Source: Octopus vulgaris | Lineage: Eukaryota | Direction: 5' to 3' | Length of the DNA: 64,000 bases | NCBI GenBank assembly: GCA_951406725.2 | Contig: OX597836.1 | Location: 46,252,001-46,316,000 of the forward strand | Shown here: one piece after another, positions 60,806 through 63,450 of the stretch | Position numbering within the stretch: the stretch's first letter is position 1 | Layout: each line of letters begins with the position of its first letter | Position numbers and translations under genes: made by a program | Notes under the pieces: generated by a model | Database searches by the model: none | Seen by the model: the letters and a program-made list of their open reading frames with translations, nothing else | What the model was told of the DNA's origin: nothing

Positions 60806-61213
60806 AGCAATAATAAATCTCTGAACGAGATGTAAACAGTAACCGCTCGACAACGTAAAGTATAATAGCCATCTCAATATGGCTAACCACAAAGGGTGGG
60901 TGTTACTGTAGCTTTCAGCCCCAGGAGATCATCGTCTCCAGCTGGCTTTAGGCACACTATCTGTGCCCTTATGGTATTTGCAAAGGGAGGTCATCCCTCT
61001 CTCATAAGCCTAAGTGATACGCACGGACTGCAGTTTCGAGGTAGTTGCCTCTTGTCAACGGGCGGTAATCACCGGTTTACGATGAAAAGGAAGACCTGTT
61101 TGCAAATACTTTAGTGTTTTTCTAGTAACTTCCGTCACTGATTTCGAAAAACTGTCTGCAAGCAATAATAAAACTCTGAACGAGATGTAAACAGTAACTG
61201 CTCGACGTAAAGT
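60806..61213 (-). mobile_element. Rod-family element D: 355 bp unit with a terminal direct repeat and a hammerhead at 61020-61064
   Basis: Repeat gcaataataaa.ctctgaacgagatgtaaacagtaa at 60807 and 61162; minus: cgcccg-TTGACAA-gagg caacta cctc-GAAA-ctgcag-TC-cgtgcg. Confidence 0.8.
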
Positions 61214-61299
61214 TAAAATTTACATAAAGCATAAGGCGAAGACAAGTGTATAAACAACAAACAGGTGTATTAGTTTAACATTCGGGAAGTTGAAAAAGT

Positions 61300-61335
61300 C
61301 TTTTACGTTTCGAGCCTACGCCCTTCAACAGAAAG
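61300..61335 (-). ncRNA. Minimal hammerhead-like motif, CUGUUGA core
   Basis: cttt-CTGTTGA-a-gggc gtag gctc-GAAA-c-GTA-aaag. Confidence 0.65.
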
Positions 61336-61501
61336 GAACACGAAGAAATAAACTGAGAGAGAATAAAAAACTTTTGGAGCTCGCGGTTAATCATGGACAA
61401 AGGTAACATATATATATACATTTTAAAAATGTAACCACATGTGAATCGTTGACAATTTTCCCCCCCGTCTTCCTTTTCTATTGGATTTTCCTCTGGCAAC
61501 T

Positions 61502-61536
61502 GTTTCTGAAGAAGAGCTTTGCTCGAAACGTAAAAC
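61502..61536 (+). ncRNA. Minimal type I hammerhead, canonical core
   Basis: gttt-CTGAAGA-a-gagc ttt gctc-GAAA-c-GTA-aaac. Confidence 0.8.
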
Positions 61537-61655
61537 TATCTTTCTTTCTTGCCCTGAGCGTCTGGTAATACTTTACCTGTTCTACGTACTCGCGTTGTTG
61601 CCTTTTTGTGTTTGTTCTTCGTTTTTTTTTTGGGGGGGGTACTATATATATATAT

Positions 61656-61825
61656 ATCGTGAAATATATTTGCCACTTAAATGTGGCTAACATCTTGGAG
61701 TGGATGCTACTGTAGCTTGTAGCCCCAGGAAGACATCTCCTCCAGCAAGGGTTAGCCACATTTAAGTGGCAAATATACTTCACGATGTCGTGCAGCTACT
61801 CTGTTTACCTCGCTCAGAGATTTGA
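61656..61825. mobile_element. Rod-family element C (internally deleted, 36 bp inverted repeat plus tail)
   Basis: 61656-61691 and 61751-61786 inverted; tail 61787-61825 is the reverse complement of the 60807-type terminus. Confidence 0.75.
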
Positions 61826-61890
61826 TATATATATATATATATATATATAAATTGATCAAAATAAAATAAAAACATGATGCGAAGGATTCA

Positions 61891-61944
61891 GCGGTACAGA
61901 TTTATAACAATGCATAATGTATGTCTGTGGCCTTCTTCAGCCGC
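61891..61944 (-). ncRNA. Degenerate hammerhead-like motif
   Basis: gcgg-CTGAAGA..taaa-tct-GTA-ccgc; GAAA box altered. Confidence 0.4.
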
Positions 61945-62261
61945 GCACAACAGCTTCCGCAAGGACATGTGTTACATCAAAAATTCTTGGTTGGGGATGC
62001 AAATCCTCTCATTCACGTACGACATAATGCGGCAGCAGCATAGAATTGAAGCGTCCATCTCTTTCTTCTCTCAATGTAGAATATATATATATATATATAT
62101 ATATATATATATATATATATATATATATATAGAGAGATAGATAGATAGATAGATAGATAGATAGATAGATAGATAGATAGATAGATAGATAGATAGATAT
62201 AAGCGAAAATGCTAGTTCTAAAATTTCTCTTAGGGATCAACGTAGTAGTTGTACTGACAAG

Positions 62262-62610
62262 TAATATTCGTAGCCACTTTAACATGGCTGTCCGTTCGAA
62301 CGGACTCAACTGCGTTTTTTAACCCTAAGAGGGCATCTCCTCTAGCTGGTTAACGATGCACACCCACATCCGATAAATTGCGATCGAATCCCTACCACCT
62401 CATACCGACAGAACCAGTTGACCAGTTCTAATTTCGGGCCATTTCTGCCACTCCGTCGCTAGAAGGTGGTAAGGGTTCGCTCTCCTGCTCACAATTTATC
62501 GGATGCAGCTGTGCCTCGTTAACCAGCAAGAGGAGATGTCCTCTTGGGGTTCAAAAACGTAGTAGAGTCCATTCGAACGGACAGTCATGTTAAAGTGTCT
62601 ACAAATATTA
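62262..62610. mobile_element. Rod-family element A: 349 bp imperfect hairpin
   Basis: Arms pair over ~135 bp; the loop has a GAAA-ttag aa ctgg-TC remnant on the minus strand (62420-62435). Confidence 0.8.
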
Positions 62611-62663
62611 TATATATATAACAAGCTAATTAGCTAGTTAGAAAATCTCTATAAAAGATGAAA

Positions 62664-63080
62664 GCAGGAGTGGCTGTGTGGTAAGTAGCTTGCTAACCAA
62701 CAACATGGTTCCGGGTTCAGTCCCACTGCGTGGCATCTTGGGAAAGTGTCTTCTGCTATAGCCCCGGGCCGACCAATGCCTTGTGAGTGGATTTGGTAGA
62801 CGGAAACTGAAAGAAGCCTGTCGTATATATGTATATATATATGTATATGTGTGTGTATATGTTTGTGTGTCTGTGTTTGTCCCCCTAGCATTGCTTGACA
62901 ACCGATGCTGGTGTGTTTACGTCCCCGTTACTTAGCGGTTCGGCAAAAGAGACCGATAAAATAAGCACTGGGCTTACAAAGAATAAGTCCTGGGGTCGAT
63001 TTGCTCGACTAAAGGCGGTGCTCCAGCATGGCCGCAGTCAAATGACTGAAACAAGTAAAAGAGTAAAAGAGTAAAGAGAG
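62664..63080 (+). mobile_element. SINE family A, near full length
   Basis: Same structure. Confidence 0.9.
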
Positions 63081-63099
63081 CAGTAACTCTAACGAGAAG

Positions 63100-63450
63100 T
63101 AATGTTTATCGCTACTTAAACATGGCGGTTCCGTAGGATCGCCGTCACTGCTACTTTTAATTCCAGGAGGGCACCTCCACTCGCTGGTTATTTGGTACAA
63201 TCCGCACCCGATGCATATTGCATGTAGGGGAGTGAACATCTATCGTCTTCTAGCCGCGACACCATCAAACCATACGGTTTCGACCCCTTTGTGGCCATCC
63301 TCGGTGGTGGATACTCGTCCCCTACTCGCAATATGCATCAGGTGCAGATTGCATCGAATAACCAGCAGGAAGAGGCGTCCTCCTGGGGTTAAAAATAACA
63401 GTAACAGAGGTTCCTACGGAACAGCCATATTTAAATGTCGATTAACATTA
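63100..63450 (-). mobile_element. Rod-family element B: 351 bp imperfect hairpin with a hammerhead at its tip (63262-63310)
   Basis: Minus: ccacca-CCGAGGA-t-ggcc acaaagg ggtc-GAAA-ccgtatgg-TT-tgatgg. Confidence 0.82.

Follow-up and report, generated by a model that had tools for sequence, protein, structure and literature searches.

Four homologous elements in the distal part of the window (the whole 64,000-nt stretch of Octopus vulgaris DNA that was analysed) are best explained as insertions of a retrozyme-like non-coding monomer that was copied into AT-rich DNA by the RT/GIY-YIG protein of a Penelope-like element (PLE), a reading to which we assign a probability of roughly 0.85. On this explanation, the rods formed by some copies are two cDNA arms joined head to head and not a form of the RNA. 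The elements, here called A to D, likely represent a new sequence family within the described class of animal non-LTR retrozymes. The sequence-only reading had proposed a PLE-mobilised, viroid-like RNA retroelement; a small, non-autonomous, hammerhead-bearing element that is most likely mobilised by PLEs is retained from that proposal, but the viroid-like rod RNA is not.

The homology of the four non-coding elements, noticed from the letters, is real, since all four align along a common scaffold, with blastn linking D to C (E = 1e-11) and A to B (E = 2e-8). Element D (60806-61213, RNA strand inferred to be minus) consists of a full 355-nt monomer (60806-61160) followed by ~56 nt from the start of a second unit, in agreement with its earlier description as a 355-bp unit bounded by a direct repeat. 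It belongs to a young subfamily whose relatives are 91-97% identical (3674 candidates, 40 scored). Its 46-nt tail (60806-60851, minus strand) lies between the fixed outer ends 60806 and 60852 and holds a small conserved hairpin. These ends are putative RT start sites, the tail of a PLE being defined as the stretch between such sites (PMC11167929). The common scaffold, at 60852-60970 in D (minus strand), comprises four or five small hairpins that all four elements contain according to alignment, pair counts, and motif count, and may be the region bound by the RT. Element C (61656-61826, unstranded as a whole) is a short two-arm insertion with a tail-bearing arm (61826-61750, minus strand) and a tail-less arm (61656-61740), both of which end short of the ribozyme. 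When folded, the C element forms a hairpin. In element A, a tail-bearing arm (62201-62454, minus strand; monomer positions 1-264) stops within the hammerhead core and is followed by an inverted tail-less arm (62455-62610, plus strand; monomer positions 63-219), so that A starts at 62201 and not, as had been proposed, at 62262. Element B had been placed from 63100 onward and begins at ~62620; its tail end (62620-62667, minus strand; monomer positions 1-46; 93% identity to a B relative) is parted from the rest by an abundant SINE-like repeat (~62668-63085, plus strand). This repeat, with what we take to be a tRNA-like head, is outside the retrozyme-like family and also lies beside many of the loci examined. 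The remainder of the tail-bearing arm of B (63086-63319, minus strand) reaches through the hammerhead, and the inverted tail-less arm (63320-63450, plus strand) is followed by (TA)n.

Across the genome, the family comprises four subfamilies (A to D) of a non-coding monomer of 350-365 nt (335-365 bp when cut from single copies) with a GC content of 0.42-0.43. Candidates number 1036 for B, 1198 for A, and 2367 for C, in addition to those of D (40 scored for each), and a 29-mer of D has 577 exact matches, compared with 0 for its control. Monomers occur singly, in partial tandems, and in arrays of up to ~10 units, D dimers among them; the units of a 10-unit D array differ from one another at 0-8 positions, and this array begins at the tail-less site, with a short direct repeat on its flanks. 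Circularised monomers fold into branched structures with 62-65% of bases paired. No LTR, PBS, or PPT was seen (PBS and PPT were judged by eye), the ends being two fixed sites and variable truncations, and tblastn gave no PLE coding match inside the monomer units. Two motifs that had been regarded as copy-specific turned out to be subfamily consensus: gtccgttcgaa.ggac occurs as a relaxed pattern in 14 of 24 A relatives (exactly in 5/24), and gttccgtagga in 14 of 29 B relatives (exactly in 5/29). Assembled contigs from eight sequencing runs, presumed but not recorded to be RNA, were aligned to D and to another locus, L044; they cover the family in short pieces that are uninformative on strand, ends, level, and circles.

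Motif parsing recovers a complete type I hammerhead on the minus strand of B and D and a remnant in A, as had been claimed. The D hammerhead (61020-61064, minus strand) has a U3-A8 core, a variant known from PMC4209133, together with a 4-bp stem II, a palindromic stem III, and five of six stem I pairs; the predicted cut lies between 61026 and 61025. The B hammerhead (63262-63310, minus strand) is degenerate but complete, with a U4C core, an extra U after A9, one stem I mismatch, and the site GUU where the family has GUC. A has lost CUGA to the inversion junction, which falls within the core, and retains just the 3' part (62414-62454, minus strand): stem II, GAAA, stem III, and the 3' strand of stem I. 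The C element of the window has no hammerhead, and complete C monomers at other loci carry one with CUGAUGA. In all four subfamilies the motif parses with a 6-bp stem I, a 4-bp stem II, and a palindromic stem III, and the sequence of stem I varies between them, yet pairs. Among loci that reach the ribozyme, the parse is intact in 5/18 for A, 6/23 for B, 36/55 for D, and 5/9 for C. The earlier placement of the ribozyme at a rod tip holds for the monomer's own imperfect stem (~45-55 bp), which the hammerhead caps, and not for the end-to-end rod. Within the four elements, scanning the window for the motif gave no hammerhead on the plus strand.

No hammerhead appears among the 150 listed of 181 Rfam matches in the window, and none was found at gathering score; one relative gives an 18-bit HH9 match (E = 3). 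The ribozyme call therefore rests on motif parsing and covariation. Neither that HH9 match nor the sub-threshold miRNA-like matches in Rfam, which are driven by microsatellites and hairpins, were used as support. When the ribozyme regions of the three window copies were folded on their own by minimum free energy (z = -0.75, +1.07, and -1.35), the hammerhead fold was not returned, the motifs being too short for this measure to be informative. Hammerhead pairs were counted on C and D alone, since stem III of these two was out of register in the four-family alignment. Of 13 pairs in the hammerhead stems, 6 differ at both positions between C and D, C3-G8 to U3-A8 among them, in rows preselected as intact-parsing. 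The scaffold hairpins have changed on both sides at 9 of 29 pairs, in an alignment where the B rows are shifted by one position in helix 1 and misaligned in helix 4. Both counts refer to hand-drawn structures and related sequences. Covariation within the family is found between subfamilies in the hammerhead and the scaffold hairpins; the end-to-end rod is unsupported as an RNA unit.

The insertions themselves are informative about how they arose. Among 73 D insertions, taken from the first 100 listed matches to the 29-mer (a sample that slightly favours two-arm copies), 49 have an inverted second arm and 24 are direct. The inner junction of the inverted arms differs in nearly every copy, whereas the outer ends map to two fixed positions separated by 46 nt. 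Thirty-eight of the 49 inverted copies combine one tail end with one tail-less end, one has two tails, one has two tail-less ends, and nine have one end elsewhere, so that the rule of one end of each kind holds in 38 of 40 scorable copies (binomial P = 1.5e-9). The same pairing was found in 24/31 further inverted copies of D, 7/11 of A, 9/13 of B, and 23/30 of C, the C sample having been drawn with a hairpin query. Target duplications of at least 7 bp flank 55 of the 73 D insertions, many of them in (TA)n; where they are not AT-only, their length peaks at 12 bp (22/53, from all 136 D loci). Duplications of 7-17 bp occur. The tail arm is the longer one in 11 D copies and the tail-less arm in 23, with 4 equal; neither arm is consistently longer, which is unlike a simple fold-back of one cDNA. 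Copies read through the cut site in 44/73 and through the unit junction in 27/73 D insertions, and no truncation pile-up is seen at the cut site (of 100 inner ends, 5 lie in 200-219 and 9 in 220-239; the largest bin holds 13). In L1 twin priming, the second target strand primes a second cDNA and the arms are joined head to head, the second site being variable and the inversion being without duplication. In A to D, by comparison, neither putative priming site varies, and the arms copy one stretch of template twice.

A pathway consistent with these features would begin with minus-strand transcription of tandem loci. The hammerhead, probably as a dimer because stem III is palindromic, would cut the tandem transcripts into monomers, which may be circularised. 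The hairpin scaffold would be the binding site of a PLE protein, which would nick the target on both strands ~12 bp apart and begin reverse transcription internally at two sites 46 nt apart; the RT would pass the ribozyme and then continue round the unit for a variable distance. The two cDNA ends, primed from opposite target strands, would join head to head, often with an overlap of a few bases, and the arms would decay neutrally once inserted. That copies read through the cut site is no proof of a circle, since uncut RNA was found to be the main PLE substrate in vitro (PMC11167929).

A variant of this pathway, in which not one circle but a pair of RNAs from a single source locus, or an uncut linear multimer, supplies the arms, stands only a little short of even odds. 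It accords with that in vitro substrate preference, with the overlap of the arms, which requires the same template stretch to be copied twice, and with insertion L035, which is discordant between its arms at 15 of 32 sites and looks like the product of two templates. The arms of L040 are perhaps discordant too. Against the variant, the majority of insertions have concordant arms despite the coexistence of several haplotypes: the two D arms of one insertion are discordant at 66 of 519 polymorphic sites (13%), as opposed to 41% between insertions (lowest of 1000 permutations, 29%), and rare variants are common to both arms 13 times more often. The 10-unit D array also fits one rolling event, but later unequal crossover could equally have given it. 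For the form with a single circle, we tentatively suggest, at somewhat less than an even chance, that a PLE RT dimer holds one circular RNA at the two sites 46 nt apart and copies it twice with strand displacement, one site being used for each nicked strand. If so, D, which has two-arm insertions by the hundred, nearly identical to one another, and lacks sequence homology with any sampled autonomous PLE, would be a circular substrate recognised by structure and would offer a natural record of the origin of PLE tails and inverted pLTRs.

The genome holds autonomous PLEs with frames of 781 aa encoding RT and GIY-YIG domains and with the same optional tail. By blastn and a scaffold profile, no autonomous PLE was found to contain the scaffold sequence among 51 loci (30 GIY-YIG loci, 20 further PLE regions, and 1 window flank) or in another set of 30; the few matches are separate insertions, and the PLEs sampled belong to GIY-YIG-positive, Neptune-like families only. 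One such match, at L260, was discarded as PLE-linked scaffold: there, C has inserted separately ~600 bp beyond the end of the PLE itself. A tblastn search with 30 of 120 PLE proteins located PLE coding pieces at 3 of 251 family loci and at one unrelated site in the window. A B copy, L004, adjoins a PLE endonuclease fragment that has the opposite orientation and is without its own 3' end, and this join was rejected as a chimeric insertion, being absent from 29 other copies of that PLE. The suggestion that a copy might adjoin a PLE RT/GIY-YIG ORF comes down to this single abutment, with no replicated linkage to such an ORF across the 251 family loci and the window.

These results bear on whether the monomer is instead the pLTR (3' end) of an unsampled autonomous PLE, its copies being 5'-truncated stumps of long linear transcripts, which we consider improbable. 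The footprint of the insertions is a PLE footprint, hammerheads occur in pLTRs, retrozymes derive from pLTRs (bioRxiv 10.64898/2026.07.22.740005), and L004 lies against PLE sequence. However, beyond the ribozyme the 136 D loci run into the next monomer and never into shared coding sequence, PLE coding pieces are as scarce as described, the L004 join is reversed and unreplicated, and the hammerheads are of canonical size (stems I and II as above), in contrast to the minimal ones in the sampled PLE ends.

A and B do fold end to end, as reported, with z-scores between about -19 and -25 relative to 30 dinucleotide shuffles. This strong fold, two arm asymmetries that coincide in A and B, four derived bases common to the B arms, and the real covariation of the family might all suggest an ancestral, viroid-like RNA rod of ~350 nt that compensatory or concerted change has maintained, but we regard this as very unlikely. 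The inner junctions differ between copies, and the inverted arm is missing altogether in 24/73 D, 13/24 A, and 16/29 B copies. Unshared differences between arms far exceed shared derived positions (20 vs 2 in A, 27 vs 4 in B, 254 vs 55 in D), and no systematic left/right difference exists across 62 D insertions (244 sites, best uncorrected P = 0.037). The asymmetries ascribed to both A and B amount to an A>G in both left arms and a C>A in both right arms, which do exist, but as just 2 among 20 and 27 arm-private changes. Further, tandem units repeat the branched monomer and not the rod. Instead of an ancestral rod that changed in concert, the inverted second arm, where present, was likely acquired insertion by insertion, and the two arms usually share the variants of their template and then decay independently. 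The end-to-end rod is therefore likely a structure of the DNA insertion, and the closeness of its 349 and 351 bp to the monomer length is a coincidence. Hammerhead viroids and viroid-like satellite RNAs (Avsunviroidae) resemble A to D in size, hammerhead, predicted self-pairing, and possible circular form; A to D differ in carrying the ribozyme on one polarity, in being genomic insertions with target duplications, and in giving no sign of RNA-to-RNA replication.

A plain MITE, with the terminal inverted repeats of a DDE transposon around a centre resembling a hammerhead by chance, would suit the long inverted arms, small size, and TA-rich flanks but has a negligible probability given the variable inner junctions and arm lengths, the two fixed and non-equivalent outer ends (one with a 46-60 nt tail), the common direct and tandem copies, target duplications that vary around 12 bp, and a ribozyme that covaries across subfamilies.

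Animal non-LTR retrozymes have been described in coral, mussel (350-390 bp), and axolotl (330/350 bp) (PMC7229834; bioRxiv 10.64898/2026.07.22.740005). Like A to D, they have a non-coding monomer of 150-450 bp with a canonical type I hammerhead per unit, a GC content below 45%, forms from monomers to multimers, no LTR, PBS, or PPT seen, and PLEs in the same genome. The sequence family of A to D is absent from the literature searched, which holds no report of cephalopod retrozymes (Repbase, Dfam, subscription journals, and supplements may name them otherwise), and the words hammerhead, ribozyme, and retrozyme have 0 occurrences in the main text of a 2026 Octopus repeat annotation (PMC13282606). 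The A to D insertions have inverted second arms, two fixed putative start sites, and target duplications, none of which figures in the portions of the retrozyme descriptions consulted. In Xenopus, 24 of 57 retrozyme families match Repbase elements, nearly all of them PLEs, whereas no homologous pLTR was found for A to D among the sampled PLEs. RNA circles have been demonstrated for animal retrozymes, whereas A to D are known from genomic sequence alone; of predicted retrozyme elements, 1 of 9 cleaved in vitro (bioRxiv 10.64898/2026.07.22.740005).

PLEs are described, in the portion of PMC8557442 consulted, as having an inverted 5'-truncated copy and a one-sided tail of 30-40 bp, and biochemical work has found two internal RT start sites, cleavage and extension of both strands, an AT-rich target, and a predicted dimer (PMC11167929). 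Endonuclease-positive PLEs (Penelope/Poseidon, Neptune, Nematis, and Naiad) and A to D have in common 5' truncation, partial tandems, an inverted 5'-truncated copy, a tail at one end, two internal RT start sites, AT-rich and (TA)n targets, and a hammerhead upstream of the start sites, although A to D have no ORF and their tail is longer (46-60 nt, compared with 30-40 in PLEs). The start site is alike on both strands in vitro (PMC11167929), whereas the A to D insertions almost always show one site per strand.

Since the retrozyme class is already known (PMC7229834; bioRxiv 10.64898/2026.07.22.740005), the locus adds breadth, in four subfamilies with covariation across them, more than a new system. 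The spread of retrozymes has so far been attributed to PLE machinery acting on RNA circles, a proposal backed by co-occurrence and pLTR homology; in A to D, the insertion scars themselves bear the PLE signature. The strict pairing of a tail arm with a tail-less arm, both copied from one template, sets a limit that can be tested on the later, unresolved steps by which PLEs retrotranspose. With 17,123 genome matches to its common 18-nt hairpin motif, compared with 4 for the control, the family is also a repeat class of considerable size, and tools that look for hairpins might take its members for MITEs or miRNA precursors.

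The non-coding elements A, B, C and D, each representing its own subfamily, lie in a region where microsatellites, SINEs and several repeats that carry hammerheads are nested together (60.4-64 kb of the window, G000:C23:46252001-46316000; assembly of 2.8 Gb, 227 contigs). Alignment bore out their proposed homology over the ~150-nt scaffold, the hairpin region common to all four. The end-to-end folds that the sequence-only reading gave for A and B held up (z -22.5/-25.4 and -19.5/-18.9, respectively, for the two strands; 30 shuffles), C folds as a hairpin, and the D monomer fold is branched and less strong (z -3.7 on the plus strand, -7.3 on the minus strand). 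Mapping to relatives moved two boundaries from where they had first been placed: A spans 62201-62610, and the start of B lies at ~62620, with a SINE inserted in the element. Complete minus-strand hammerheads had been claimed for B and D; that of D (61020-61064) stands, that of B (63262-63310) is present in degenerate form, and A has half of one only.

In relatives, the sequence past the ribozyme comes back to its own start, so the unit is a monomer of ~350-365 nt. A hairpin motif that the subfamilies have in common matches the genome 17,123 times, a reversed control 4 times, and genome searches gave 3,674 candidates for D, 2,367 for C, 1,198 for A and 1,036 for B (40 scored each). D is young, with 91-97% identity among its best matches, and includes a ~10-unit array with 0-8 differing positions among its nine complete inner units. 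A and B are older, the window copies being ~75-83% identical to their best matches. Further sibling subfamilies carry the scaffold at 360-bp spacing with a different tail, and their abundance looks like that of D. A tandem of short units made up solely of scaffold lies at G000:C1:11168386-11169253, where seven scaffold motifs recur every 119 bp and one more is inverted.

When tested for membership, the family did not qualify as a MITE, as an autonomous Penelope-like element (PLE) or as a viroid-like rod. By its sequence, it would be classed with the animal non-LTR retrozymes, a class traced by a 2026 preprint to PLE terminal repeats (pLTRs); that study covers 35 genomes, and the groups it lists include no mollusc (10.64898/2026.07.22.740005). 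A literature search, with repeat databases and supplements outside its scope, found no published description of the family.

Hammerheads were examined at 112 D, 12 C, 24 A and 29 B loci and, among loci reaching the motif, parsed as intact in 36/55, 5/9, 5/18 and 6/23, respectively. Stem I differs in sequence in each subfamily with its pairing kept, and stem III is palindromic in every subfamily. The D core is U3-A8, as reported for some PLE hammerheads (PMC4209133), and half of the parsed B copies carry U4C, reported to reduce activity in vitro (PMC3088659). Both sides have changed in 6 of 13 hammerhead pairs (five rows each from C and D, selected for intact hammerheads) and in 9 of 29 scaffold pairs (hand-drawn hairpins, 15 rows); both covariation scores, inflated by relatedness and row choice, exceed those of shuffled and slid controls. 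Circularised monomers fold into an imperfect stem of 45-55 bp with a ribozyme cap, plus small hairpins (62-65% paired).

We fetched the surroundings of the first 100 of 577 exact matches to a D 29-mer; once overlapping loci were joined, 73 insertions resulted, with two of the 100 matches counted in another D sample instead. A second, inverted arm is present in 49 and absent from 24, and a few of the 49 are short internal inversions only. The outer ends lie at one of two monomer positions, 1 and 47, the bounds of the 46-nt tail. Among the 49, 38 combine the two types of end, 1 has tail ends on both sides, 1 has tail-less ends on both sides, and in 9 one end lies elsewhere (38/40, P 1.5e-9). The same rule is followed by 24/31 in a further 63 D loci, by 7/11 in A, 9/13 in B and 23/30 in C (a sample biased to hairpins), and by the window copies of A, B and C. 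Inner junctions are highly variable, often with a few bases of overlap, and target duplications of at least 7 bp surround 55 of the 73 insertions; the lengths of duplications that are not AT-only peak at 12 bp. This architecture matches published PLE insertions, which have partial tandems, a neighbouring inverted copy truncated at its 5' end, and a tail on one side only (PMC8557442). Frangieh et al. showed that AT-rich DNA is nicked on both strands by a PLE protein and that both strands are extended, with internal starts at two sites bounding the tail (PMC11167929).

The rod had been read as ancestral, its arms changing in a compensatory or concerted way. Across 62 D insertions with two arms, mismatch between the arms affects 13% of polymorphic sites versus 41% between insertions, and rare variants are shared by both arms 13 times more often (0.70% versus 0.054% per site), yet unshared rare differences (254) outnumber shared ones (55). 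Both arms are therefore usually copies of one template, or of one source locus, that then diverged independently. In the window, the A arms have 2 derived bases in common, both common polymorphisms, versus 20 private; the B arms have 4 versus 27. The motifs taken as copy-specific proved to be subfamily consensus, and the two asymmetries common to A and B are real, with about one such coincidence expected by chance on a rough hand estimate. No systematic arm bias was found in the D insertions.

Fold-back of a single cDNA would not account for all copies, since neither arm of the inverted D copies is consistently longer (11 versus 23, equal in 4) and the tail could not be templated by a tail-less arm of less than one unit. 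Two separate priming events, each on its own nicked strand and at its own start site, would explain all copies. The predicted cut site is crossed by 44 of the 73 D insertions and the unit junction by 27, so the template was either an uncut multimer or, as Cervera & de la Pena model it (PMC7229834), a circle; both fit the data.

The genome contains young PLEs with 781-aa RT and GIY-YIG frames, Neptune-like on our own reading of the cysteine motif before the endonuclease. An optional tail like that of the retrozyme copies occurs in 3/8 copies of this young family and in a second PLE family, and one sampled PLE copy (L260) has its own inverted end. The scaffold sequence was shared by none of the sampled PLE loci. 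In a tblastn search of 251 family loci and the window, PLE coding pieces were found at three family loci, only one of which adjoins a copy: at L004:1455-2283 (G000:C2:94348914-94349742), a B copy lies head to head with a Neptune-like PLE endonuclease/3' UTR fragment. This join could be a chimeric two-template insertion; it was not replicated in 29 other copies of that PLE. The case for a PLE as the putative helper therefore comes from the insertion footprint. Loci L306-L313 hold a young autonomous PLE family, a candidate helper; it has numerous open frames of 781 aa, a minimal hammerhead of U3-A8 type and, optionally, a tail of ~38 nt.

Other PLE-related pieces occur in the window. A GIY-YIG region fragment lies at 50118-50360 on the minus strand (tblastn E 5e-16), and a PLE-end-like remnant at 60440-60790 (plus strand), directly left of D, contains by eye a hammerhead-like motif whose stem II is long (~60686-60790). 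The stretch 61214-61620 holds two fragments that resemble PLE ends, both abundant and oppositely oriented, each with a minimal hammerhead-like motif seen by eye (~61295-61340 minus, ~61505-61540 plus), and similar pieces are present in several PLE loci. Within 63500-64000, a motif scan found further hammerhead-like motifs at 63561 (minus), part of a high-copy repeat, and at 63905 (plus, long AT-rich stem II). Broken LINE 3' pieces at 58000-59320, presumably of a Dong/R4-like family, have a restriction-like endonuclease end and a (TAA)n terminus. A near-perfect hairpin of ~110 nt at 39795-39905, with sub-threshold miRNA-family matches, is probably a small inverted-repeat element.
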